Source: an uncultured delta proteobacterium (lineage in GTDB: Bacteria; Myxococcota_A; Polyangia; Polyangiales; Polyangiaceae). From it: a DNA stretch of 30,072 bases. The stretch covers positions 577,029 through 607,100 of the forward strand of contig CAVXQJ010000016.1 in the NCBI GenBank assembly GCA_963763745.1, written 5' to 3'. Positions 1 to 27,011 of this stretch are shown one piece after another; position 1 is the first letter of the stretch, and each line of letters begins with the position of its first letter. The notes beneath the pieces were generated by a model. It saw nothing but the letters and a program-made list of their open reading frames with translations. It was not told the DNA's origin and did no database searches. Both the position numbers and the translations under genes were made by a program.

Positions 1-364
1 CGCGGGCGCGATGCCGAAGGACGGCCCTTCCGCTGGCGTGACGATGTTCACCGCGCTCACCTCGATGCTCACGGGCATCCGCGTGCGCCACGACGTCGCG
101 ATGACGGGCGAAATCACGCTGCGCGGCCGGGTCCTCCCGATCGGCGGCTTGAAGGAGAAGGTCCTCGCGGCACACCGCGCGGGCATCAAGCGCGTCATCG
201 TTCCGGATCGAAACAAGGCGGACCTCGACGAGGTGCCCGCCGAGGTGAAGAGCGATCTCGAGTTCGTCTTCGTCACGAAGATGGAGCAGGTGCTCGAGGC
301 CGCGCTCGAAGAAATGCCGAAGCCGAAGCCCAGCGAAGCCGCGGCGCCCGCGCCGGCGAACTGA
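1..364 (+). CDS. lon: ATP-dependent Lon protease, C-terminal S16 proteolytic domain (5' part lies outside the window)
   Basis: The frame of ORF 11..364 stays open to the window edge. Motifs PKDGPSAG (catalytic Ser) and [19 protein letters not shown] (catalytic Lys) align to the Lon peptidase domain. Stop TGA at 362-364. Confidence 0.9.
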
Positions 365-384
365 GCCGAACGCCAGAAGAAGGG

Positions 385-424
385 AAACGCGCTGCATCGC
401 GAGATGCGGCGCGTTTCGTTTTTT
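385..424 (+). terminator. Rho-independent terminator after lon
   Basis: GC-rich hairpin AACGCGCTGCATC (386-398) / loop GCGAG / ATGCGGCGCGTT (404-415), followed by the T-rich run tcgTTTTTT (416-424). It sits between the convergent lon and kinase genes. Confidence 0.6.
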
Positions 425-458
425 GTCACCTGTCAACGCCGCGCCGCGGCGAGCATCG

Positions 459-2069
459 TCACTTCCGCCCGCGACGGGTGACCTCGGCGCACGCGCGCGC
501 GTTTCCGTTGCGACATGCGTAGCGGAGGTTGTCGCAGTCGACCGTGCCTTGCGCCGGGCTGCGGTCGGCGCGGAAGCCCGAGCAGCTCGCGCCCTCCATG
601 CCGAGGAACGCGTCGCCGGCCGTGCAGGGCAGACACGAGGAGAGCGTGCCGTTCGGCTCGTGCGTGTTGATGAGCTTACCGGCGCGCGTCGTGTCGCCCG
701 TGTAGCCGTCACACGGGTCGCCGTCTTTCGCGGTGAGCGTCTTGCCGTAGACCTCGTCTGCGCACGTCGGAGAGTCGTCGTTCGTCCACGGTGTCTTGCA
801 GAGCGAGACACCGGACGAATTGGTGCACTTGCAGAGAGACGGACCAAGCTTCTCTCGCGCGCACAGGGTCGCCGTGCTGCCGGAGACCGGAAGACACAAG
901 CACCCGAGCTCGCCCGCGAGCGCAGGCGACGTCGTCGCGGCAGTCCGCGCGCTCGCTTGCGGAGCGGGCTCTGCGACCGCGTGCGTGTCGGCTGCGGAAG
1001 TCGCGCTCGCGCTCGGAGCTGCAGACGCGATGGGTGTATTCTGCACATTCACGCTCGGAGCGCTCGTGGGCGATGGCGCGCGACGCGCGGCGAAGAAGAC
1101 CGCGGTCGCGCCAACCGCGAAGGCCGCCGCGGCGACGATGGGCATCGGTGAGCGACGAACATTGCCGGTGGAGGTTTGCTGCGGCGTCGCGTGGAGCGCG
1201 GCGGTCGTCGCGACGTTCTTCGCGCCCGGATTCGGCTCGGGCAGGATCGCAAGCGAGCCCGTCGTGGCGCCGAGCGCGCGCGCGACTTCGGCCATGTCGG
1301 CGTGGCGCTGCGCGGGGTCGATCGACATCGCGCGCGCGATCGTCAAGCTCACCTCGACCGGCACCTCGCGCAAGAACGCGTGGAGCAGCGCAACGTCCCC
1401 GGTGCTGGGACGCATTCCGCTCAAAAGCTCGTACGCGGTGACGCCCCACGCCCACTGATCCCACAGCGGGCTTGGCGTCGAGCCGGCGCGCTGCTCCGGC
1501 GCCATGTACGCGCTCGTTCCGACGACGCGTCCCTCCGCCGTCCGCACGCTCATCGGAACGTCCGACGTCGGCGCCGACGTGTCGACCGCGACGATGCGCT
1601 TGGCGATGCCGAAATCGAGCACGCGGATTTGGCCGTCGTCCTTCGCGACGATCACGTTCTCGGGTTTCACGTCGCGGTGCACGATGCTCTTGGCGTGCGC
1701 AGCGGCAAGCACGCTCGCGAGCTGTTTGAGCCACTCGAGCTTGAGCGTCACCGGCCCGCTCGCGCCGACGTATGCGCGCAACGTTTGGCCATCGATGTAT
1801 TCCATCGCGAGAAACGGGACGCCGTCGATCTCGCCGGCGTCGAGGAGCGTCACCGCGTTCGGATGTTTGAGCGCCGCGGCCGAGCGCGCTTCGGAGAAGA
1901 GCCGCGCGACGGCTTCGGGTTTGTTCTTGTCGCGCCGCACGATCTTGAGCGCAACGAGACGCTGGAGCATCGTGTCGAACGCGAGCATGACCTCGCCCAT
2001 CCCGCCCGTGCCGAGCGGCGCGCGGATCTCGTAGCGTCCGAAGCGCGTGCCGACCTCCATGATCGCCAT
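459..2069 (-). CDS. Hanks-type Ser/Thr protein kinase, single-pass membrane protein with Cys-rich C-terminal (extracytoplasmic) domain
   Basis: Kinase motifs GTGGMGEV, VALK, HRDVKPEN, DFG, TSAYMAPE. Ala/Pro linker, a predicted TM segment (MPIVAAAAFAVGATAVFFAA), then ~150 aa with 14 Cys. The ORF extends to 2105; starts at 2069 or 2060 fit kinase N-termini better. Confidence 0.85.
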   Translation of the reverse strand: MAIMEVGTRFGRYEIRAPLGTGGMGEVMLAFDTMLQRLVALKIVRRDKNKPEAVARLFSEARSAAALKHPNAVTLLDAGEIDGVPFLAMEYIDGQTLRAYVGASGPVTLKLEWLKQLASVLAAAHAKSIVHRDVKPENVIVAKDDGQIRVLDFGIAKRIVAVDTSAPTSDVPMSVRTAEGRVVGTSAYMAPEQRAGSTPSPLWDQWAWGVTAYELLSGMRPSTGDVALLHAFLREVPVEVSLTIARAMSIDPAQRHADMAEVARALGATTGSLAILPEPNPGAKNVATTAALHATPQQTSTGNVRRSPMPIVAAAAFAVGATAVFFAARRAPSPTSAPSVNVQNTPIASAAPSASATSAADTHAVAEPAPQASARTAATTSPALAGELGCLCLPVSGSTATLCAREKLGPSLCKCTNSSGVSLCKTPWTNDDSPTCADEVYGKTLTAKDGDPCDGYTGDTTRAGKLINTHEPNGTLSSCLPCTAGDAFLGMEGASCSGFRADRSPAQGTVDCDNLRYACRNGNARACAEVTRRGRK

Positions 2070-2673
2070 GGTACGCTCGACGGCCATGCACGACGGCGTA
2101 TTCATCCACGAATCGGCCTACGTCGACGAGCCATGCACGATCGGCGAGGGGACGAAGATCTGGCATTTTTGCCACGTGCAGCGCGGCGCGAAGATCGGAC
2201 GCTCGTGCGTGCTCGGGCAGAACGTCAACGTGTCGAACGACGTCACGATCGGCGATCGCGTGAAGATCCAGAACAACGTGTCGGTCTACACGGGCACGAC
2301 CGTCGAGGACGACGTGTTCCTCGGCCCGTCGTGCGTGCTCACGAACGTGTCGAACCCGCGCTCGGAGATCAACCGCAAGGCCCAATACGAACGAACGCTC
2401 ATTCGGCGCGGCGCGACCATCGGCGCGAACGCGACGATCGTGTGCGGCGTCGCGATCGGTCGTTACGCGTTCATCGCGGCGGGCGCGGTCGTCTCGCGCG
2501 ACGTCCCCGACTTCGGTCTCGTGATGGGCGTGCCCGCGCGTCGCGTCGGTTGGATGAGCAAGCATGGCCATCGCCTCGAGAACCCCGACGCGGACGGCGT
2601 GATGACGTGCCAAGAGGGCAAGCTCAGGTACCGCGAAGAAAGCGGCGTGCTCCGCTGTCTCGACGAAGCATGA
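2047..2673 (+). CDS. Hexapeptide-repeat (left-handed beta-helix) sugar N-acetyltransferase, WbpD/PglD-like
   Basis: Repeated [LIV]GxxxxI hexapeptides (IGEGTKI, IGRSCVL, IGDRVKI, IGANATI, IGRYAFI). GTG at 2047; alternative ATG starts at 2059, 2068 and 2086. Stop TGA 2671-2673 overlaps the next ATG. Confidence 0.8.
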   Translation: MPTSMIAMVRSTAMHDGVFIHESAYVDEPCTIGEGTKIWHFCHVQRGAKIGRSCVLGQNVNVSNDVTIGDRVKIQNNVSVYTGTTVEDDVFLGPSCVLTNVSNPRSEINRKAQYERTLIRRGATIGANATIVCGVAIGRYAFIAAGAVVSRDVPDFGLVMGVPARRVGWMSKHGHRLENPDADGVMTCQEGKLRYREESGVLRCLDEA

Positions 2674-3758
2674 TGCGCATTCCATTCGTCGACTTGCGCC
2701 GCGACGTGCGCGACGACCGAGAGCTCGAGGCCGCGTTTCGTCGCGTGCTCCAGAGCGGGAAGTACATCCTCGGCGAAGAGGTCGAAGCGTTCGAGCGCGA
2801 GTGTGCGCGCGTCGTCTTTGCGCGTCACGCGATCGGCGTGTCGTCGGGCACCGACGCGCTGCTCGCGTCGCTGATGGCGCTCGGCATCGGGCCGAGCGAC
2901 GAAGTGATCTGCCCCGCGTATACGTTCATCGCGACGGCCACGGCGGCATCGCGTTTGGGCGCGACGCCGGTCTTCGCGGACGTGAGGCCGTGCTGTTTCG
3001 GTCTCGACGCAGACGACGCGGCGCGCAGGATCACACGGAAAACACGGGCGATCATCGTCGTGCATCCGTTCGGGCAAGTCGCGCACCTCGAGGCCATCGA
3101 GCGCGTCGCGCGCGAGCACGGCATCGCGCTCGTCGAGGACGCCGCGCAATCGATCGGCGCGCCGCAACGCGTCGCTGGACGCGTCTCGTGTCTCTCGTTC
3201 TTTCCGTCGAAGAACATCGGCGCGCTCGGCGACGCGGGCCTCGTCGCGACGGACGACGACGAGCTCGCGGCGATCGTGAGGTCGCTCCGCGTGCACGGCG
3301 CCGTCGCGAAGAACGATCACGTGCGCATCGGCGGCAACTTCCGCATGGATGCGCTGCAAGCCGCGCTCCTTCGCGTGAAGCTCCGTCGCATGGACGAAAT
3401 CACGAACAAGAGGCGCGCGAACGCGACGCTCTACGACGAGCTCCTCGCGGGCGCGACCGGCGTGAGCACGCCGAAGCGGTGCTCGGGCGCGCACGTCTTC
3501 AACCAATACATCGTGCGCTCGAACGCGCGCGATGCGCTCCGCTCTCGCCTCGCGGACGCGAGCATCGAGACGGCCATCTACTACCCGCGCCCGCTCCACG
3601 AGCACGCGTGCTTCGCGCACCTGCCGCGCACGAGCCTGCCGGTCGCAGAGGAAGCCGCGAGGACGACGCTCGCGCTCCCGATTTTCCCGGAGCTCACGGA
3701 GGAAGAAATCCGTCACGTCGCTTCTCAGGTCGCTTCGAGCACCGAGCGAAGCAAGTAG
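2670..3758 (+). CDS. PLP-dependent sugar aminotransferase, DegT/DnrJ/EryC1/StrS family
   Basis: 362 aa. Family-typical N-terminus (IPFVDL...), the PLP-Lys context SFFPSKNIGALGDAG and the C-terminal YYPRPLHE...LPIFPELTEEE. ATGA start/stop overlap with the upstream acetyltransferase. Confidence 0.85.
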   Translation: MMRIPFVDLRRDVRDDRELEAAFRRVLQSGKYILGEEVEAFERECARVVFARHAIGVSSGTDALLASLMALGIGPSDEVICPAYTFIATATAASRLGATPVFADVRPCCFGLDADDAARRITRKTRAIIVVHPFGQVAHLEAIERVAREHGIALVEDAAQSIGAPQRVAGRVSCLSFFPSKNIGALGDAGLVATDDDELAAIVRSLRVHGAVAKNDHVRIGGNFRMDALQAALLRVKLRRMDEITNKRRANATLYDELLAGATGVSTPKRCSGAHVFNQYIVRSNARDALRSRLADASIETAIYYPRPLHEHACFAHLPRTSLPVAEEAARTTLALPIFPELTEEEIRHVASQVASSTERSK

Positions 3759-6727
3759 AGCGCTTCGGCGCGCTCGACGGGGTGTAGCTCCGCGAGCGGC
3801 TTCACGACTTGGAGACGAAAGCCCGTGCACATCGTCTTGCTGTTCATCCACTTCGTGTCGGCGTGGAGCTGGACGGCGCCTTGCTCGCGGCTCATCTGGT
3901 ACCAGTTGCTCACGCCTTGCTCGCTGAGCACGCGCTGGAACGCGGAGTAGAAAATCGGCTGCGAGAGCTCGCGCCGGATCTCTTGCTTCGCGTCGTCGTC
4001 CGCCGCGATCGGGAGCGGCGTGCGCGCGAGCTGCGCGACGGGTTGAATGAGCCCGTAGTCGGTGAACGTGCGCGCCCACGTGTCGAGCGTCTTCGTGTCG
4101 AGCTCGGCGAAGTGCGGAACGCGGACCAACTCGGTGTCGCCGAGCGTGAGTGCGGAGTCTTCGATGTCAGCGAGCGAGCTGTCTTCCGCGACGCGAAACG
4201 TGACGAGCGCGCCGTCGCGCTCGACGGCCCAGACCATCGCGCGCGCTTGATGCTTGCCGAGCGGGTGATTCGCCCAACCCGCGAGGAACCGCGGCGCGGG
4301 AACGCGACGAGCGCTGCGCATCGCATCGACGAGACCGCGAGCGCGAAGACGCGCGATCGTGCGCACGTCTTCTTTGAGCTCGTCCCACCGCTCGCGCGCG
4401 AGGCGAATCGCGATCGGATCATCGGACGATTGCGCGCGCGGTATCGCAGCGAGCCTCTTTTCGCCGAGAAATAGAATCGGCGCGAGCGTCGTGTCGAACC
4501 CGACTTGTAGCGTGCGCGCGCCGTATTCGAGCGACGTCGTGCCCTCTTCGGCGAGCGCGGTCGTCGGCAGGAGCGTCTCGACGATCGCGTCGACGGACGT
4601 CGAGAGGCCGGTCGCGACGTTGCGCATCGAGTGTGGAGCGTCGCCGCGTTCGTGCGCGGTCGCGATCTCCATCGACGCGGAGCGCACGCCGCGAATCGCG
4701 AGGTGCTCGAGGACGCTATGAATCGTCGTGTGCTTGAGCGCGGGCGTGAGGCGACGAATCACGAGGTCGTTCGCGAAATGAACGAGCGACCAACGCATCC
4801 ACTCGAGCGCATCTTGTCGCCATCGCTTGGCGCTGTCCGCGAACGCGGCGAGGTCCCACACCATCTCCGCCAGCGAGTCCGGATCGCATGCAGCTTTCAA
4901 GTCCTCGAGGCCTGCGTACGGTTCTTCGATCGGCGAGAACGAGAGGATCTCGAGGACCCGCTCGTGCGCGTCGTCGGCGAACATTCGCCCATCGCGAAGT
5001 CGCGCGTGCTTGACGTGCGGCGCTTGCCCGAGCTTCACGGATTGCGAGGGAACGTCGAGGCGCGCATCGCGATCGAGGAGCTCCGCGATCATCGCCGTGT
5101 GCTCCGTCGGCACGAACGAGAGAATCGTCTCGCGATGACCGAGGCGCGCGAGCTTGCGGAGGGCGAGCACGCACGCGTGCTGGTAGTTGGGCTCGTGAAC
5201 GTGGGCGAGCAAACCGAACGCGGCTGCGCGCGGCTGCGCTTCGAACCACGACCACGTGTGTTGTCGCGCGAGCCACGCCGTCGCGAGGCCGAGCGCGATG
5301 CCCGCGTCGTCGATGCGATCGCGCACCTCGCGTTCGAGGTACGCGGCGCGACCCGTCTGGCGCAGGCCGGGGAGCGCGCGCTCGCCGAACGCGCCGAGCA
5401 TCAGCACGTCGATCGTGCCGGACCAGCGTCCGGCGTTGTAGAAGGCAAGCACCGTCTCGATCGGTATGGCGGCGTCGGCGAACTGGAACGAGTACACCGA
5501 GCCTTTCGCGCCTTGCGCGCCCATGAACTCGTTCAGCTGCTCCGCGTTCATGTACGGCTTGCCGCTGCGCTGCCTATCGAGCTCAGCGAGCGCTTTGTTC
5601 TTTTGTTCTTCCGAGACCTCGAGGCGCGATGACCACGTGGTGACATCGAGCCCGAGCTTCGGAAGCGCGAGCGCTCCTTTTCTCCACGGCGCGTCGCGCA
5701 GCACGGCGGGCATCGCGGGATCGTCCAGCGCGACGGTCTCGCCGGGCTCGGCGCTCGTCTGATCGCCGCAGATCTTGATGAGAAGCTCCTTCGCGAGCGC
5801 TGCGTTCCGCGATGCGCCCTCGCTCGCGGCGGGGAGCACTGCGGCCGCGAGCTTCTTGTCGTGCGTGAAGTAGTCGCCGATGATCTTGCGCGTCGGTGGA
5901 TTCGAGATTTGCTTCGCGAGGTGCTTCGCGGACGTTTCGTTGACGATGACGCTCATCGCGAGTGCGTGCGACAAACGGCGAGCGTGGCCCGTCGCGGCGG
6001 GCGCGAGCGAGAGCAAGATGGGGAGCGCGTCTTCGCCGAGCGACGCGACGATCTCGGGGTACGCGATCGCGTCGCTCTTCGTCGCGCGCGCGACGAGCGT
6101 GCGCATCGCGTCCTTGTCGCGCACGATCGCGAGCTGCCTCGAGTCGAACTTCGGCGCTTGGTCGAGGATCTCCGCGGCTGCCTGCGCGCGCCACGCCTCG
6201 TCGTCGAAGAACGCGTAGGCGAGGTGCTCGTGGACTTCGACGTCGCCGGCGTCCCACGTGGCCTGCGCGAGCTCGCGACACTTCGCGCGCACCGAGGCGT
6301 CGCGCTCCGACGCCAAGAGGATGCGCAGCATGTCGCCGTTCGGGCGTTTCTTGGCCGGTTTGATCACGCCGTCCACGTTCTCGAAGCGAGGCGTGATGAG
6401 AAGCGGCGCCACGCGTGCGGTCCCGAAGTGCTCCGCGAGCCACTCGCACGTGCGATCGCCGCCGGTCGCCACGGCGAAGACCGCGAGCTCGTCATCGGTG
6501 AGCGCGGTCGGGGCGTTTTCGAATTCGACGACGCGCGCGAGCACCGCGGCGATTGCCGGATCGTCTGCGCGAAGCGAGCGCTTCGCCCAATCGACCATGT
6601 ACTTGATGCCGCTCCACTCGCTGTAGCGCCAGCGGCCGCGGTTGTCCTTCACGTCGGTCGAGTTGCGCGGCGCGATGCAAATGCGCGCGGCGGTGTGCCA
6701 ATGAAGCGTCATTGGGAATGCGCGCAT
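3725..6727 (-). CDS. Large (1000 aa) alpha-helical protein of unknown function (possibly DUF4132-like C-terminal region; unverified)
   Basis: Uninterrupted 3-kb ORF with coding-like composition and no recognisable catalytic motifs. Starts 6 nt after the EBP stop. Its 3' end overlaps the convergent aminotransferase by 34 bp. Confidence 0.7.
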   Translation of the reverse strand: MRAFPMTLHWHTAARICIAPRNSTDVKDNRGRWRYSEWSGIKYMVDWAKRSLRADDPAIAAVLARVVEFENAPTALTDDELAVFAVATGGDRTCEWLAEHFGTARVAPLLITPRFENVDGVIKPAKKRPNGDMLRILLASERDASVRAKCRELAQATWDAGDVEVHEHLAYAFFDDEAWRAQAAAEILDQAPKFDSRQLAIVRDKDAMRTLVARATKSDAIAYPEIVASLGEDALPILLSLAPAATGHARRLSHALAMSVIVNETSAKHLAKQISNPPTRKIIGDYFTHDKKLAAAVLPAASEGASRNAALAKELLIKICGDQTSAEPGETVALDDPAMPAVLRDAPWRKGALALPKLGLDVTTWSSRLEVSEEQKNKALAELDRQRSGKPYMNAEQLNEFMGAQGAKGSVYSFQFADAAIPIETVLAFYNAGRWSGTIDVLMLGAFGERALPGLRQTGRAAYLEREVRDRIDDAGIALGLATAWLARQHTWSWFEAQPRAAAFGLLAHVHEPNYQHACVLALRKLARLGHRETILSFVPTEHTAMIAELLDRDARLDVPSQSVKLGQAPHVKHARLRDGRMFADDAHERVLEILSFSPIEEPYAGLEDLKAACDPDSLAEMVWDLAAFADSAKRWRQDALEWMRWSLVHFANDLVIRRLTPALKHTTIHSVLEHLAIRGVRSASMEIATAHERGDAPHSMRNVATGLSTSVDAIVETLLPTTALAEEGTTSLEYGARTLQVGFDTTLAPILFLGEKRLAAIPRAQSSDDPIAIRLARERWDELKEDVRTIARLRARGLVDAMRSARRVPAPRFLAGWANHPLGKHQARAMVWAVERDGALVTFRVAEDSSLADIEDSALTLGDTELVRVPHFAELDTKTLDTWARTFTDYGLIQPVAQLARTPLPIAADDDAKQEIRRELSQPIFYSAFQRVLSEQGVSNWYQMSREQGAVQLHADTKWMNSKTMCTGFRLQVVKPLAELHPVERAEALYLLRSVLEAT

Positions 6728-6733
6728 CGTACC

Positions 6734-8056
<1,323 letters not shown>

Positions 8057-8071
8057 CGGTCGATCATACTC

Positions 8072-9591
8072 TCAAAGATAAGGATTCGGCGGTGGGCCCG
8101 ATGCGGTCGCTGCCGGCGTCGTCGCGGTCGCAGTCGCGGTCGCGCTCGGCACGAGTCGCGGTCGCGTCGTGCGCGTCGTCATCGAGGCCGTCGCGCTGGC
8201 CACATCCGCGCTGTGCGCCGTGAACGTGAGCGACGCGATCGCCGGCTCGGCGATCGACGCGGTCGGAAGCGGGCTCTCTGCCGACGCGGCAGCTCTCACG
8301 GGCGGCGGCTTGTGCGTTGCGAACACGACCGCGCTCGCACCCGCGAGGAGCGCGATGCCCGCGACGACGACGACCACCGTGAGCGGTCGCGCGCGCGACG
8401 GGACTCCCGCGGGCGCGAGCGCGTCCGAAGTCGTTGGCTCCGCGCTTCCATAAACCGCCGTGTGCGCGGGCGCGGCGACGTTCGGGATCAGCACCGGTGC
8501 ATCGATCTCCGTCGTCGCCACCGCGGCCGGCGCGGCGGAGGGCGCGCTCGACGGCACGCTCGACGGAATGCTCGGCGGCTCCGCGCCCATCAAGCTCAAA
8601 AATCCCGGCTCCGACGCGAGCCGCTCGCGCACCTGCGCGCGGCGCGCCTCGAGCTGCGTCGCGGCGACGCGTTTGACGATCTCCGACACCTCCGCGTGCG
8701 ACGCGACGAGCCCCGCGCGCGCCGCGCACGACTCGAGCGCCGCTGCGAACGCGCGCGTCGTCGAGAAGCGTCGCTCCGGATCCTTGTCGAGCGCCGTCAC
8801 GAACACGTCGTCGAGCGCGGCGAGCTCCGGCGCGCCCGCGGACACGCGCAGCGCCTCGTGCGTCATGATCCGCTGCGCCGTCTCGACCTCGTTCTCGCCG
8901 CGGAACAACCGCTTCCCCGCGAGCGCCTCCCAACCGACGACGCCGAGCGCGAAGACGTCGACGCGGCGATCGATGCGGCGCCCTTGAACGTACTCGGGCG
9001 ACATGTACGCGAGCTTGCCTTTGAGCATGCCGCTGTTCGTCACGGCCATCGCCGTCGCCTTCGCCACGCCGAAGTCGGACACGCGCGTCGCGCCGTCGAT
9101 GCCGATGAGGAGATTCTGCGGCGACACGTCGCGATGCACGAGCCCGACGGGTCGTCCCTTTTCGTCGAGCAGCTCGTGCGCCGCGTGAAGCCCCGCGCAG
9201 GCTTCGAGCAAGATGCGAACGACGACGCGCGCCGGCACCTTCTCGTTCGCCTTGCTGGCGAGCACGAGCAGCTCGCCGAGCGACGCGCCCTCGATGTAGT
9301 CCATCACGAGCCGGATCTCTTCGTGCCGCCTTCGCCGGACGTGACGTACACGTCGCGCACGTCGACGACGTTCACGTGATGAATGAGCGACGCGAGCCGA
9401 GCCTCCGCCACGAGCTCCTTGCGGTAGCTCGGATCATCGAGCAGGTGCGGATGGGGTTCTTTGATCGCGACGATCTGGCGGAAGCCCATCGAGCCGCGCG
9501 CGGCGCCGACGTAAACGGTGGCCATCCCGCCCGACGCCAGCTTGAACAAGATGTCGTAGCGGGCGTCGCTCTTCCGCCGCTCCGTCGCCAT
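8072..9591 (-). CDS. Hanks-type Ser/Thr protein kinase with C-terminal TM segment and Ala/Ser/Thr-rich tail; reading frame interrupted by an apparent 1-nt deletion near 9311-9330
   Basis: Subdomains I-IV (GGMATVY, VAIK) lie in ORF 9304..9591. Subdomains V-XI (LVMDYIEGASL, HRDVSPQN, DFG, SPE) lie in ORF 8072..9307, in another frame. Restoring one base between ...SGEGG and EEIRLVMDY rejoins them. Confidence 0.75.
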
Positions 9592-9605
9592 CCCAGAACA
9601 CTACG

Positions 9606-10559
9606 TCAGAAGGACATTCTCCAAAAGATCGCAGCGCCATGCGTGCTCGGGGCCACCTCGACCGTCGCGTGCCATCGCGTGAGGGCTCCCGCGACGATCG
9701 TCCACACGGCCGCTGCGATCGAGACGCCGAGGAGAGCGTCGCCCGTGGCCATCGTCGCCGTGCCCGAGCTCGCGAGCGAGTTGCACGAGGCCGTCGTTTG
9801 CGTGGCGCACGACTGCGAGACGAACGAGTCGTGCGTCGACTGCGTCACGGCGAGCAGGATCGCCGACGCCGTGCCGAGCGCCACCGTCGCGCCGAGGCTC
9901 GCCCAAAACACCGCCGGCGGAAGACCCTTCGCGCGCGCGCGCAGGGCGATGGGTTGCTCGCTCGGCGCGATCGTCACGAGCGGCGGTGGCGGCGTCACGT
10001 CGGTTCGCGTGTAGATCGTCGGTGGTGTTTGCGGCGGCGGCGATGGCTCGATCGCGACCTCCGCGTCCGCCGTGACGTCGATGGCGCGCGCCTCGCTTCG
10101 GCCATCGATCGAAAACGTGATCGCATGCGTCCCCACCGCGACCCAGCGCGCGCGTCCGATGTCGAGCGCGACGCCATCCATCGTCGCCGTGCACGCCGCG
10201 GGACACGCTGCTTTCACGCGGCCCGCGCGATGCGCGAGCTTCGCCTCCGCGGCGCGTACGGACGCCTCGAGCGCGCCGCTCGCGTCTCGCGATCGCGCGC
10301 GCTCGAGGAGCTCCGCGCCGAGCACCGCGTCGTCGGCCTTCACGCACGCGTCGAGCGCCGCTTGAAGCGCCACGGGGCTCGGCGCGATCGCGTCCGCGCG
10401 CGCGTACGATGCGGCGGCCTTCGCGAGCTCGCCGCGCGCGTATTCGCGCGTGCCCTCGTCGTACGCCGCGCGTGCTCGAGCGCGATCGTCGTCGGCGTGG
10501 GCCGCGTGCGCCAGCGCCATCGCGACGGCGATCGCGCCGAGGGTCGCGCGCGCTCTCAA
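9606..10559 (-). CDS. Secreted/membrane protein: signal peptide, helical periplasmic region, Pro-rich linker, two TM segments
   Basis: TTG start at 10559-10557 overlapping the upstream TGA (TTGA), with an alternative GTG at 10565. Signal peptide MRARATLGAIAVAMALAHAAHA. PPPQTPPT/PPPP linker. Hydrophobic segments AVFWASLGATVALGTASAILLAV and LLGVSIAAAVWTIVAGAL. Confidence 0.6.
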   Translation of the reverse strand: MRARATLGAIAVAMALAHAAHADDDRARARAAYDEGTREYARGELAKAAASYARADAIAPSPVALQAALDACVKADDAVLGAELLERARSRDASGALEASVRAAEAKLAHRAGRVKAACPAACTATMDGVALDIGRARWVAVGTHAITFSIDGRSEARAIDVTADAEVAIEPSPPPQTPPTIYTRTDVTPPPPLVTIAPSEQPIALRARAKGLPPAVFWASLGATVALGTASAILLAVTQSTHDSFVSQSCATQTTASCNSLASSGTATMATGDALLGVSIAAAVWTIVAGALTRWHATVEVAPSTHGAAIFWRMSF

Positions 10560-10978
10560 TGGCACCCCGCGCCCGTGCACGAGCAGCCCGCCCCCGTGCA
10601 CGTGTCGTTGCACGTCCCGTCGCACTGAAACGAGCAACCGCCTCCGCTGCAAGACACGTTGCACACGGCGCCCGCCGCACATTCGACCGAGCAGCCGCCT
10701 TGGTCGCAAGAGAGGTTGCACGTCGAGCCGGCCGGGCACTTGTAGTCGCATCCGCCGCCCGCGCACGATCCGTTGCACACGTCGCCCGACGAGCAGGCCA
10801 AGCTGCACCCGCCCGACGCGCACGTTCCGTTGCAGATGTCGCCCCCGCACGTGTAGCCAACGGGCGCTTGCGCGTCGCCTGGCGGCGGTTTGTTTTCGCC
10901 GCCCACGCTCCAGTCGTAGAGACACGAGACGAGCAGCGCGCTCGTCACACTCGCTACGATCGCTTGCCTCGCGCGCAC
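10556..10978 (-). CDS. Small lipoprotein with tandem 19-aa Cys repeats (C-x3-C-x4-C-x3-C-x5)
   Basis: GTG start at 10978 with an AGGAG Shine-Dalgarno 7 nt upstream. Signal peptide plus lipobox LVSC. About four repeats of CN[GLV][ST]C-xxGGC-xxxC-xxGxx; 20 Cys in ~95 mature residues. Confidence 0.7.
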   Translation of the reverse strand: MRARQAIVASVTSALLVSCLYDWSVGGENKPPPGDAQAPVGYTCGGDICNGTCASGGCSLACSSGDVCNGSCAGGGCDYKCPAGSTCNLSCDQGGCSVECAAGAVCNVSCSGGGCSFQCDGTCNDTCTGAGCSCTGAGCH

Positions 10979-10982
10979 TCGC

Positions 10983-11633
10983 TCACTCCTTCGACAGCGT
11001 GAACGAACCCTGCTCGGGCGAAGAGCCGTTCGTGTGCCTGTAGTTCATGCCGTTTCCCTGCACGCAGAAAGCGTACTCGTTTCCGTCGCCCGTGACGATC
11101 GTGTCGCCTTGCACCGTGTAGGTCGTCGAGCCTTCGTCGCTGAGCGTGGTGGTCACGTCGCACTTGCATCCACTGCTCCCGTCGTCCGCACACGACGCGG
11201 TCGTGGTGCCCGCGGCCATGTCGCTCTGCACCGCGGCGCATCCGCCGGCGGGCACGGAGCACGAAGCGGGGACGTCGAGCGTCGCTTTTCCCGTCACCGT
11301 GTATGCGCGCGAGACGTTGCCTCCTGCGAACGCGACCTGCGCGGTGACGGTCGCCGACGTGTTCGTGATCGACGCCCCGGGACACGCGCTCGTCAAGCCG
11401 GAGAGATCGAGCTCGGCGCAACCGCCCGTGTAGCTCCATGTGCCTTCCACCGCGCCGCCGCACGAGGTCGTGCTCGGACACGACGCTTCGATGCTCACTT
11501 GCGCCGGCTGCGGGGCGCTCGCCTGTGAGTCGCCCGCCTTGCCTGCGTCGCCTTGGCTCGCGGGAGCGGAGCTGCACGCGAAGAGCCCGAACGTGAAGAG
11601 AATCGAGAGTGCCCGAAACGATGAGTGGCGCAT
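10983..11633 (-). CDS. Secreted lipoprotein, Ser/Thr/Gly-rich with 10 Cys, unknown function
   Basis: ATG at 11633 preceded by GGAGG (9-nt spacing). Signal peptide MRHSSFRALSILFTFGLFAC with lipobox LFAC. The stop lies 4 nt before the next gene's GTG. Confidence 0.65.
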   Translation of the reverse strand: MRHSSFRALSILFTFGLFACSSAPASQGDAGKAGDSQASAPQPAQVSIEASCPSTTSCGGAVEGTWSYTGGCAELDLSGLTSACPGASITNTSATVTAQVAFAGGNVSRAYTVTGKATLDVPASCSVPAGGCAAVQSDMAAGTTTASCADDGSSGCKCDVTTTLSDEGSTTYTVQGDTIVTGDGNEYAFCVQGNGMNYRHTNGSSPEQGSFTLSKE

Positions 11634-11705
11634 GGGATGGAACCTCCACACGCTTCCTCTTCAAGTCGCGTTCCACACGAAACATGTTGAAAATAGGCGT
11701 TTGCG

Positions 11706-11765
11706 TGCGTCACGCGTGACCGCTTTCGGCGACCCCGCGCGAGGTGCATGCGTCACGGGTGACGC
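11706..11765. promoter_or_regulatory. Two 16-bp palindromes GCGTCAC-NN-GTGACGC (11706-11721, 11750-11765) in divergent intergenic region; candidate operator / enhancer sites
   Basis: The palindromes are near-perfect and perfect inverted repeats, centres 44 bp apart. A weaker third half-site pair lies at 11785-11797 (ATGACGCGTGTC). Both 16-mers are conserved exactly in the right-arm copy (16123-16138, 16162-16177) although the surrounding sequence has diverged. Confidence 0.4.
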
Positions 11766-11816
11766 ACCGCTGGTATCGTGAGCGCATGACGCGTGTCTCG
11801 TTCTGTTCCGTATTCG

Positions 11817-11832
11817 CGGCACGCCGTTCGCC
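11817..11832 (+). promoter_or_regulatory. Candidate sigma54 (-24/-12) promoter cGGCACGccgtTcGCc upstream of the Nudix gene
   Basis: Matches TGGCACG-N4-TTGC at GGCACG and the T-GC positions, with correct GG-N10-GC spacing. It lies 37 bp before the ATG at 11869 and 55-110 bp downstream of the tandem palindromes. The match is weak. Confidence 0.2.
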
Positions 11833-11868
11833 ACGCTCGAATATCCGCGCACGTGCGCGAGCTGCAAG

Positions 11869-12331
11869 ATGCAGACATGGGCGAATCCGATTCCCGTGTC
11901 GGTCGTGTTGTTGCCCGTGCGACACCGCGCGCGCGAAGGTTTGCTCGTCGTGCGACGCGGCATCGAGCGGGTCTCGGGGAGCTCGCGATCGTCGGAGGAT
12001 TCCTCGAGGAGCACGAGACGTGGGCGGAGGGCGGGGCGCGCGAGCTTCGCGAGGAGACTTCGGTCGTCGTCGACGCGAAGACGCTCGAGCCGTTCTGGTT
12101 CACGTCGACCGGCCGAAGCCGAATCGCGTTCTCTTGTTCTCGCTCGCGCCGCCTGTCGATTCGAGCGGGCTCGCGCCGCTCGCCCCGAACCACGAGACGC
12201 TCGCGCGCGGTCTCGTGTTCGGTCCGCGCGGTCTCGACGACGTCTTCGCGTTTCCTCTGCACGCAGAGGCCGCGCGGAGATTCTTCGCGTCGCGCAACGC
12301 ATCGGGGGAACATGACTTCGCCGAAATATGA
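11869..12331 (+). pseudogene. Nudix hydrolase interrupted by two 1-nt deletions (near 11968-11970 and 12098-12110)
   Basis: The N-terminus NPIPVSVVLLPV...GLLVVRRGIE reads in frame 1. The Nudix box GGFLEEHETWAEGGARELREETSV reads in frame 2. The C-terminus NRVLLFSLAPPVD...FFASR reads in frame 3. The right-arm copy reads RRGIEPGLE straight through the first break. Confidence 0.6.
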
Positions 12332-12932
12332 TCTCCTCGCGGCGTGGCACGCGCGCGCCGATGTCTTGCTCGACGAAGCGCTCGCGCTCCTCGTCGATCA
12401 CGAGGAGTTGCCTTTTGCGGACGGCGAGTGGGTGCGTCAGCTCGCGCGATTTCGATTCTCCGCGCAGCACGTCGCGCCGGTCGTCGCGCTCATCCGCAAA
12501 CGCGATCCGTTCCTGTGCGAGGCGGGTATCGTGCTCGCGGCATCGCTGCTCGAGCGGAATCGCGACGCGGCGGCGGAAGTGGACGCAGCCGTCGCATCCG
12601 TGTTCGAGGCGCCGCCCGTCAATCCGTGGATCCTCGAAGCAATCGCGTCGCTCGCATCGCGCCACGCGGAGCTCGCGCGGTTCCCGCTCACGTATCGCCG
12701 GCTCGTCGTCGAGCTCGAGGCGCGCCCATCGATCGCGATGGAGCCGCAGCGCATCATGCGCAATCGCGCGATCGCTCCGCATCGCAGGTTCATCGGAATG
12801 TTCGAGCACCACATCCTCAGCGCGCAAACGCAGACGGAGCGCGAGCGTCTCGTCCTTCCGCTCGTCGAAGCTGCGCTCGGCACGCGCGGATTCGAAGCGA
12901 CGCGCGACGCGCTCGCTCGACGCTTCGGATGA
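12312..12932 (+). CDS. Hypothetical protein (~206 aa, alpha-helical, no recognisable motifs)
   Basis: Intact ORF from ATG 12312 to TGA 12930-12932 with coding-like composition. It overlaps the Nudix 3' end by 20 bp. Confidence 0.5.
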   Translation: MTSPKYDLLAAWHARADVLLDEALALLVDHEELPFADGEWVRQLARFRFSAQHVAPVVALIRKRDPFLCEAGIVLAASLLERNRDAAAEVDAAVASVFEAPPVNPWILEAIASLASRHAELARFPLTYRRLVVELEARPSIAMEPQRIMRNRAIAPHRRFIGMFEHHILSAQTQTERERLVLPLVEAALGTRGFEATRDALARRFG

Positions 12933-12965
12933 TGGCCATCGGCGCCGGAGGCGCCAGAGCATGTG

Positions 12966-13910
12966 ACTAATGAACCGGTGGCAGCGAGATCTTGAACACG
13001 TCCCACGCAGGGCGTGTGGTTGTTCTCCGGCCGCGGGTTGGTTCCCACAGGTAGAGCGCGGCATACGTCGTGCACGGTTCCGTTCGCGACGACGACGGGC
13101 GTCACGTAGAGCTGTGGGTTTCCCGCTTCGTCCCGCACCGAGCTGAAGACGACCCAGTAGAACGTGCGGCTGCCGCTCGCGGGCGACGCTTGCGGCGCCC
13201 ACTTCGGCCAGCTGTTCGTCACGCCCGGGAGATTTTTTCCCGGTGCACGCGGGCGGATCGTTCGCGGCGAGTCGCGTCGCCGTTCCGCCGCTCGCGGGAA
13301 TGGACGAACACCTCCGCTTGCGGCTGGTTGTACATGTTCAAGTTGTGCCGATGCGATCGAACGCGAGGAGCTCATGGTCGGGCGAGTACGCCGGGGTAGT
13401 ACTCTTCGTAGTTCGCGTCGGGACGCGCCGGAGATCGGCGTCGCCGTGCCGCCCGCGCGGTTCGCGTACGGGATCGAATAGAGATCGGCCGAGCCGTTGT
13501 CGAGGCGACCGGTGACGACCGCCGTCGTCGAGCACGTAGACGATCGTGTTGCCGTGGTCACTACACGCGGCGCCGCGCCTTTGCGCGTGTCGCCGGTGCG
13601 CAGAAACGTGCCCGTCGCGGTGCCGTTCGCGACGCCGAGGAATCGACCCCAGCTCGAAATCGGAGTCGTTGAACGTCGTCACGACGACGTAGTCGTTCTG
13701 CGGCCCAATGCGCGGGCGGACGTCACGCTAATCCCGCGCGGCGCGTGCTCGACGCCGCTTTGCCCGCCGCGCCAGAGAAACGGCGGAACTTGTCCGACGG
13801 TGTTCTGCTCGATCGAGGCGATCGCGTTGTTCCAGCCGTTCGAAGTGCTGAGCTCCGCGTAGAGGCCATCGGCATGCGAGCATGCTGGCAGCCGATGCAC
13901 GATGCGCCGA
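12966..13910 (-). pseudogene. Fragment of a PD40/TolB-like beta-propeller protein, multiply frameshifted and truncated at the palindrome centre
   Basis: Protein-like segments sit in three minus-strand frames: ...PAYSPDHELLAFDRIGTT...; DLYSIPYANRAGGTATPI; LPGVTNSWPKWAPQASPASGSRTFYWVVFSSVRDEAGNPQLYVTPVVVANGTVHD. The frame runs across the centre as GAIVYWTTEGRIFAQ. Confidence 0.4.
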
Positions 13911-16122: not shown

Positions 16123-16177
16123 GCGTCACCCGTGACGCATGCACGCAGGGGTCGCCGAAAGCGGTCACGCGTGACGC
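16123..16177. promoter_or_regulatory. Mirror copy of the two 16-bp palindromic sites, each conserved exactly
   Basis: GCGTCACCCGTGACGC at 16123-16138 and CGGTCACGCGTGACGC at 16162-16177 are exact reverse complements of 11750-11765 and 11706-11721. The spacing between them is 5 bp shorter than in the left arm. Confidence 0.35.
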
Positions 16178-26951: not shown

Positions 26952-26991
26952 AAAAAACAAAACGCGCAGCATCTCGCAATGCGGCGCGTTT
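26952..26991 (-). terminator. Mirror copy of the lon terminator hairpin (6 substitutions in 80 bp relative to 361-440)
   Basis: AAACGCGCAGCATCTCGCAATGCGGCGCGTTT preceded by AAAAAAC on the top strand. It retains a stem but has one disrupted pair. Confidence 0.4.
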
Positions 26992-27011
26992 CCTTTCTTC
27001 TGGCGTTCGGC

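Follow-up and report, generated by a model that had tools for sequence, protein, structure and literature searches.

Tandem palindromes as probable enhancer sites of a sigma54-type promoter upstream of a lipoprotein-kinase-FHA activator operon in an uncultured myxobacterium

In a stretch of 30,072 nucleotides from an uncultured delta proteobacterium of the family Polyangiaceae (assembly GCA_963763745.1, contig CAVXQJ010000016.1, forward-strand positions 577,029 to 607,100; henceforth, the window), two palindromes lie between a lipoprotein gene on the minus strand and a divergent Nudix gene on the plus strand, which raises the question of which of the two genes they serve and which protein might bind them. 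A preliminary description of the sequence proposed that they are enhancer sites for an FHA-type enhancer-binding protein encoded next door and that they act on a plus-strand sigma54 promoter of the Nudix gene; as an alternative, it named the divergent lipoprotein operon as their target. Our comparison with related loci argues for this alternative target and for the proposed activator. Specifically, we suggest that the palindromes are probably the enhancer sites of a minus-strand sigma54-type promoter that drives an operon encoding, in this order, the lipoprotein, a Cys-rich exported protein, a membrane protein, a Ser/Thr protein kinase and the FHA activator itself.

Two dyads in the intergenic region

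The stronger of the two palindromes, the distal dyad, occupies positions 11749-11766 as a perfect 18-bp palindrome, TGCGTCAC-GG-GTGACGCA, and encloses the 16-mer GCGTCACGGGTGACGC at 11750-11765 exactly as previously described. Its centre (11757.5) lies at about -108.5 relative to the predicted minus-strand transcription start, and its outer end is separated from the start codon of the Nudix gene by 19 nt. The proximal, weaker dyad (GCGTCACGCGTGACCG, 11707-11722) reads CGGTCAC-GC-GTGACGC in the orientation of the lipoprotein gene; here, the perfect palindrome is limited to the inner 12 bp (GTCACGCGTGAC), and the centre (11714.5) lies at about -65.5 from the predicted start. This site, too, had been recognized as a palindrome, albeit one base off at 11706-11721, and the distance between the two centres, given earlier as 44 bp, measures 43 bp. 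What had been listed as a weaker third site at 11785-11797 consists of the Nudix start codon and the codons that follow it (ATG ACG CG, Met-Thr-Arg), and its letters are also present in L014, a related locus without the operon.

Are palindromes of this kind to be expected in G+C-rich DNA? The 30-kb window contains four copies of the exact core common to both dyads, GTCAC-NN-GTGAC (GTCACNNGTGAC), with two in either arm of the inverted duplication described below; dinucleotide-preserving shuffles gave 0.04, and none of them reached four. If the 16-mer pattern is searched at three mismatches, 8 occurrences are found in the window and 9 are expected, as would be the case for functionless chance features. 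Such an explanation is at odds with the approximately 100-fold over-representation of the exact core and with the conservation of position, helical phase and sequence in 12 loci, and we consider it to have practically no chance of being correct. We conclude that the dyads are real and exceed what chance produces in G+C-rich DNA. A literature search on the half-site strings returned primers and unrelated papers and no published binding site resembling GCGTCAC-NN-GTGACGC.

A control module shared by related loci

A protein collection contained 16 clear homologues of the lipoprotein, one of which (P0001) is 100% identical to it while the other 15 are 47-83% identical. Upstream DNA was available for 11 further distinct loci (L001, L004-L008, L010-L012, L016 and L017), the lipoproteins of which are 47-83% identical to that of the window, so that 12 loci could be considered counting the window; the upstream alignment comprises ten loci, and L016 and L017 were compared additionally. 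In 12 of 12 loci, the region upstream of the lipoprotein gene has the same elements in an unchanged succession, i.e. the distal dyad, the proximal dyad or half-dyad, a block of the form TGGAACG-N4-(T/G)TGA and a GGAGG. The distal dyad has the consensus GCGTCA(C/G)-NN-GTGACGC, within which GTCA..TGACGCA is invariant in the ten-locus alignment and also present in L016 and L017. At the proximal site, most relatives have mainly kept the promoter-facing half, (G/A)TG(A/G)CGC. The intergenic DNA between and around these blocks varies freely, giving a mean column identity of 66% with invariant islands. The block TGGAACG-N4-(T/G)TGA is highly specific, occurring once in each operon-bearing locus with an upstream region and nowhere else in the 165 kb compared.

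To which of the flanking genes this module belongs can be judged from loci that contain only one of them. Neither a dyad nor the promoter block was found at two Nudix loci without the operon (L014 and L015), and neither was found in L003, the sole locus from a scan of the genome collection with a lipoprotein alignment, which serves as a negative control in that it encodes a distant lipoprotein homologue (32% identity) without kinase, activator or operon. On the other hand, each of the five loci with sufficient downstream sequence (the window, L001, L011, L012 and L016) contains the FHA activator gene. The gene upstream of the operon varies among the loci (a TPR protein, a histidine kinase and others), being the Nudix gene in the window and L010 only, and the neighbourhoods of the operon in L001, L011, L012 and L016 are quite different. 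Moreover, L015 is collinear with the first arm of the window (Lon, kinase, Hexapep, DegT, DUF4132, Nudix and PD40) except that the five-gene run is missing: at L015 6886-10001, the counterpart of window positions 6734-11785, the DUF4132 and Nudix genes are directly adjacent and divergent at a distance of approximately 30 bp, and in the window the operon together with its control region sits exactly between them. Because of these changing neighbours and the direct adjacency of DUF4132 and Nudix in L015, the operon and its control region, judged by locus comparison, behave as a transferable or relocatable cassette. And because of the specificity of the block, the changing neighbours, the negative controls and the co-occurrence with the activator, we assign the control module to the operon rather than to the Nudix gene.

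The conserved block resembles a sigma54-type core promoter (TGGAACGCGACTTGAA, 11660-11675, minus strand). Positions were counted from the conserved GG as -25/-24 (11674-11673). In this numbering, the -24 region is represented by TGGAAC (11675-11670, minus strand), which is invariant in the 12 loci, and the -12 region by TTGA at -15 to -12 with an A at -12 (11661). The block has two mismatches to TGGCACG-N4-TTGCW in the same register, and exactly 10 bases separate the GG from the -13/-12 doublet without length variation in any locus. Transcription is predicted to start near 11649. The Shine-Dalgarno sequence GGAGG (11643-11647, minus strand), which is conserved in all loci, lies 9 nt before the lipoprotein ATG (11633-11631) and 6-9 nt before the ATG across the loci. 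A simple scan of 11500-11900 revealed no sigma70-like promoter.

The geometry of the region is equally constrained. Two dyads upstream of the promoter are what would be expected of enhancer sites, which are typically ~80-150 bp away. In nine loci, the dyad centres fall at approximately -108.5 and -65.5, and in L001, L016 and L017 at approximately -118.5 and -76.5, the dyad-to-dyad spacing being 42-44 bp across the loci. The distance from the proximal centre to the -24 G is 40.5-41.5 bp in the former and 52.5 bp in the latter, a difference of exactly 11 bp. Correspondingly, the spacer between the proximal dyad and the promoter (11676-11706, minus strand), which contains a semi-conserved T-rich CGT.TTT(T/C)C and might be a site of bending or of integration host factor (IHF) binding, exists in two length classes 11 bp apart. 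The spacing therefore shifts by a whole helical turn, as face-of-helix activation predicts, and across the loci the dyads are in helical phase both with each other and with the promoter.

Several observations weigh against a sigma54 promoter activated from these dyads. Most importantly, the GC expected at -13/-12 is absent: the element reads (T/G)TGA, in which the G at -13 is kept and A occupies -12 in 12 of 12 loci, while the share of known sigma54 promoters with C at -12 is 96% (PMC4551910) and all listed targets of Nla28 in M. xanthus keep GC there (PMC9765219). The promoter is, thus, at best a non-canonical member of the sigma54 type as judged from its bases. The predicted leader, only ~16 nt long, begins practically with the ribosome site, and most enhancer sites that have been characterised lie farther from their promoters than the proximal site at -65. 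Also, the 1.3-kb contig L009 is homologous from lipoprotein residue 41 on, with upstream DNA that is unrelated and lacks the motif. Finally, all loci come from one narrow lineage and part of the conservation could reflect shared ancestry, yet the flanks have diverged freely.

An alternative is that the elements are genuine control elements of the lipoprotein operon that work by another mechanism, with a regulator encoded outside the cassette (a repressor or an activator) occupying the dyads, and with the block serving as the promoter of another sigma factor, such as one of the extracytoplasmic function (ECF) type, or as a protein-binding site. In favour of this reading, GGAAC resembles the -35 element of ECF promoters, and the conservation runs past -12 as (A/G)(A/G)(A/T/G)GGA, an unusual feature among sigma54 promoters. 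In addition, the A at -12 breaks the sigma54 rule (PMC4551910). However, the sequence 16-17 nt after GGAAC, where a -10-like element would be expected, is variable and contains no conserved element of this kind; a start specified by an ECF sigma factor would fall on or after the GGAGG; and the invariant TTGA is located exactly at the position of the sigma54 -12 element. Moreover, an activator with a GAFTGA motif needs a sigma54 promoter, which points to this block, the sole candidate that travels with the activator. On balance, we regard another mechanism as unlikely, though it deserves to be kept in mind, and the ECF reading of GGAAC in particular was set aside for its missing -10 element and its start on the ribosome site. 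A possible hairpin in the promoter block, CATC-TTGA-GATG, was also rejected, its pairing being broken in the window, L010 and L017.

Two further palindromes related to the dyads were encountered in the comparison loci. A perfect GTCAC-NN-GTGAC, GTCACCGGTGAC, lies inside the lipoprotein gene of L006 (4764-4775), L007 (2593-2604), L008 (1280-1291) and L009 (945-956). We rejected it as a regulatory site: it most likely represents the Val-Thr-Gly-Asp codons of the family-conserved peptide VTGDGN, and a coding coincidence is probable. A variant dyad, GTCACGCCTGAC, is found in L016 (2115-2126) and L017 (1858-1869) among the opening codons of a gene that lies two genes upstream of the operon and, in L017, encodes a kinase according to Pfam; we judge its presence in these two related loci to be coincidental, but it may be an extra site.

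The operon and its predicted autoregulation

All five genes of the operon are on the minus strand. The first (10983-11633) encodes the lipoprotein of 216 residues, which has the signal peptide MRHSSFRALSILFTFGLFAC. The second (10556-10978) encodes a Cys-rich exported protein of 140 residues that matched no Pfam family; a Cys-rich gene directly follows the lipoprotein gene also in L001, L004-L006 and L010-L012, and a gene of 143 residues is called at this place in L016 and L017. The third (~9606-10682) encodes a membrane protein of ~330-360 residues with hydrophobic C-terminal segments and an uncertain start, for which no known family was matched. In the position of this gene, a 358-residue gene is called on a Logan contig that has the identical lipoprotein, and genes of 314-388 residues are present in L001, L011, L012 and L016. 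The fourth gene (8072-~9590) encodes the Ser/Thr protein kinase; owing to a frameshift, its N-terminal part lies in another frame, and the Pkinase match of the window kinase begins at profile position 77. Kinase orthologues in L001, L011 and L012 are 62-69% identical. In the window, L001, L011 and L016, the kinase gene directly precedes that of the activator, while two other genes intervene in L012.

The fifth gene (6734-8056) encodes an enhancer-binding protein with the domain order FHA-AAA+ (sigma54 interaction)-HTH_8, and this protein is our candidate for the one that binds the dyads. In Pfam searches, it matched FHA (E = 2.6e-17), Sigma54_activat (E = 1.8e-69) and HTH_8 (E = 2.4e-6; 27.6 bits against a cut-off of 22), and a Walker A motif GETGTGKD and a GAFTGA motif are present in the activator of the window and in its orthologues. 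It clearly belongs among the sigma54 activators with FHA input, and no other protein of the cassette has a DNA-binding domain. The orthologues are 76-80% identical, and the recognition helix of the helix-turn-helix (HTH) domain is invariant. Together with the phylogenetic footprinting in 11 loci and the helical phasing, the co-occurrence of the dyads with an activator that has a GAFTGA motif and an invariant HTH supports that part of the preliminary description in which the dyads were enhancer sites for the FHA activator next door; the promoter and the Nudix target named alongside did not stand up. Instead, it was the target mentioned there as an alternative, the lipoprotein operon, for which a conserved, sigma54-like promoter was found on the minus strand (11660-11675).

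Our working hypothesis is, therefore, autoregulation. Dimers of the activator would bind both dyads by means of the C-terminal Fis-type HTH, more strongly at the distal site at ~-108 and more weakly at the proximal site at ~-65, and these two sites, four helical turns apart, would present them on the same face of the DNA. The bound dimers would then assemble into an AAA+ ring, the GAFTGA loop of which would contact sigma54-RNA polymerase at TGGAACG-N4-TTGA (-26 to -12). Opening of the promoter would increase expression of the activator's own operon, which is to say that the predicted sign of the regulation is positive. Upstream of these steps, the FHA domain presumably reads phospho-threonine written by the co-encoded kinase.

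The suggested arrangement has a well-known counterpart in enteric bacteria, in which NtrC acts at glnAp2 from two dyads, TGCACC-N5-GGTGCA, at ~-108 and -140 on the same face of the helix. Common to both systems are an activator with a GAFTGA motif and, upstream of a -24/-12 promoter, two dyads suited to binding by a dimeric Fis-type HTH and placed on one face of the DNA; here as there, the combination of a strong and a weaker site could aid assembly of the AAA+ ring. The systems differ in that the sites here have half-sites of the form GCGTCAC-NN-GTGACGC, lie nearer to the promoter (-65 and -108) and serve a promoter with A at -12, and in that the input involves an FHA domain and a Ser/Thr kinase while NtrC has a receiver domain and a histidine kinase. 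Closer in phylogeny, FHA-domain enhancer-binding proteins of Myxococcus xanthus were reportedly described by Jelsbak, Givskov and Kaiser in 2005. These proteins share with the activator of the window the order FHA-AAA+-HTH, the phylum and a presumed link to Ser/Thr kinases. Our literature search found no reported binding site or target for the activator encoded in the window.

An autoregulated activator operon with tandem sites has been documented for Nla28 of Myxococcus (PMC9765219). As predicted here, the nla28S-nla28 operon contains the gene of a myxobacterial sigma54 activator and is apparently activated by it from tandem upstream sites, and one of the listed target loci encodes a putative lipoprotein (PMC9765219). 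In contrast to the activator of the window, Nla28 is a response regulator, and its sites are 8-bp repeats, CT(C/G)CG(C/G)AG, with variable spacers upstream of promoters that, as far as listed, all have GC at -12 (PMC9765219). The module described here consists of dyads of 16-18 bp at fixed spacing, with a Ser/Thr kinase input that would be read by the FHA domain.

What the conserved A at -12 means for such a promoter deserves separate consideration. The consensus C at -12 holds basal transcription down (PMC4551910), and, according to the part of that article in which Wang, Guo and Gralla 1999 is cited, a non-consensus base at this position loosens the block on basal transcription. We speculate that a leaky promoter could provide an operon under positive feedback with the leak that it needs to start. 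That the A at -12 is functional rather than tolerated, or that the block belongs to a non-sigma54 promoter class served by a GAFTGA activator, is a tentative idea to which we give a rather low probability. If it is true that the A is functional, the cassette would be a natural and conserved case of a sigma54 promoter that is leaky by design and linked to signalling through a Ser/Thr kinase; in any case, the A conserved at -12 is a genuine, if minor, departure from the rules for sigma54 promoters. Few FHA-type sigma54 activators have known sites or targets, and for this hitherto uncharacterised signalling cassette of uncultured soil myxobacteria the module (GCGTCAC-NN-GTGACGC, promoter, predicted start and phasing) provides a precise map of the cis-regulatory elements that lends itself to testing.

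The neighbouring Nudix gene and the inverted duplication

The preliminary description had the Nudix gene begin with an ATG at 11869. This codon specifies an internal Met: judged from the length of the homologues and their zinc ribbon, the gene starts with the ATG at 11786 (plus strand), from which a protein of 181 residues can be rebuilt across three frameshifts. The rebuilt protein has more than 1000 homologues of 181-187 residues with 65-80% identity over 97-100% of the length, which carry the names Labilithrix or Polyangiaceae, in keeping with an uncultured Polyangia-like group as the source, and the Nudix proteins of L010, L014 and L015 have an N-terminal zinc ribbon, MTR(D/V)SFCSYCGT...YPRTC.SCK. 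In Pfam searches with the reconstructed N-terminus, the zinc-ribbon matches stayed below the cut-offs, and the matches of full-length homologues were used instead. With the start at 11786, the true intergenic region is 11634-11785 (152 bp).

This start also bears on the plus-strand sigma54 element at 11817-11832 (cGGCACGccgtTcGCc), which was originally proposed to be under the control of the dyads and to drive the Nudix gene from 11869. The element has a GG and a GC at the proper spacing and three mismatches to the sigma54 consensus. However, matches of this quality occur at the rate expected by chance (48 in the window, 51 expected); the element lies within Nudix coding sequence, where it specifies Cys-Gly-Thr-Pro-Phe-Ala of the zinc ribbon in a 181-residue protein that fits its homologues from 11786 on, and the same codons are present in L010, L014 and L015; and Nudix loci without the operon have no dyads while operon loci without Nudix keep them. 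We consider it extremely improbable that the dyads enhance a promoter at this element. Only the window and L010, its closest relative, have the Nudix gene beside the module, and we interpret this gene, on the basis of these comparisons, as an unrelated neighbour of the control module.

A more modest role for the dyads on the Nudix side would be compatible with the enhancer function in the lipoprotein operon, in that the activator at the distal dyad might, in the genome of the window, also block or modulate the Nudix promoter. Because the Nudix ATG is just 19 nt away from the distal dyad, in a divergent region of 152 bp, this promoter must overlap 11700-11785. The juxtaposition, however, is confined to the window and L010 and arose from insertion of the cassette, the Nudix side is not conserved beyond close relatives, and the simple scan found no Nudix promoter. 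We, therefore, regard such an additional effect as doubtful. Between the Nudix gene and the PD40-like gene, an open reading frame of ~205 residues (~12313-12932, plus strand) has no Pfam match, and no gene is present there in L015.

The preliminary description had also relied on a mirrored copy of the dyads at 16123-16138 and 16162-16177. These copies do exist (16123-16177, centre spacing 39 bp compared with 43 bp in arm 1), but they belong to a large inverted duplication that makes up the whole window, in which 118-13908 (arm 1) pairs with 27265-14024 (arm 2) around a centre at ~13966, and in which arm 2 extends at least to 29166, past the mirror of the left edge of the window and into the N-terminal part of the Lon gene. 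By blastn, the arms are 77-83% identical, so that the figure of ~10% given for the difference between the flanks was too low. The differences comprise 918 substitutions and 1681 indel bases and are, thus, dominated by indels. In 2.9 kb around the dyads, 166 substitutions and 227 gap openings distinguish the two arms; over the same 2.9 kb, arm 1 differs from the related, Illumina-derived contig of L010, which represents natural divergence, by 320 substitutions and 66 gap openings. The substitutions between the arms are strand-asymmetric (302 C to T, 50 G to A), arm 2 has a lower G+C content and a positive AT skew, its genes are fragmented, and the centre of the fold-back interrupts the PD40-like gene at approximately residue 240. 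Because of the low, indel-dominated identity, the excess of gap openings, the strand asymmetry, the broken genes and the gene cut at the centre, we consider arm 2 to be very probably technical in origin, i.e. a fold-back, unpolished chimeric long-read stretch in the deposited contig of 607,100 bp. Related contigs bear names typical of long-read metagenome assemblies.

Arm 1 has frameshifts as well: the Nudix gene contains three (~11812, ~11970 and ~12110) and the kinase gene one or more in its N-terminal part (~9310-9590). At ~11970, an extra C in arm 2 (GAGCCGGG compared with GAGCGGG) restores the Nudix frame, and both arms look like imperfect readings of one true sequence. In L011, which is another long-read assembly, the activator gene (11428-12755) is split over two frames and was not called, suggesting that frameshift errors are common in these assemblies.

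The noisy copy of the dyads in arm 2 is not an independent functional copy, and a deletion of 29 nt beside it includes the promoter (TGGAAC). The exact conservation of the 16-mers between the arms, which had been put forward as evidence, says little because about one sixth of all 16-mers anywhere in the arms are preserved exactly; the dyads sit in exact inter-arm runs of 34 and 27 nt, and the arms contain 68 runs of at least 28 nt. In view of the indel-dominated differences and the fragmented genes of arm 2, inter-arm conservation was discarded as a signal of selection. The finding also calls for caution with regard to the deposited contig: its fold-back measures at least 16 kb, one arm is full of errors, and apparent conservation between such arms must not be taken for selection.

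Near the left edge of the window, a G+C-rich hairpin followed by a T run (AAACGCGCTGCATCGCGAGATGCGGCGCGTTTCGTTTTTT, 385-424, mirrored at 26960-26999) lies after the end of the Lon gene at ~361 and looks like an intrinsic terminator.

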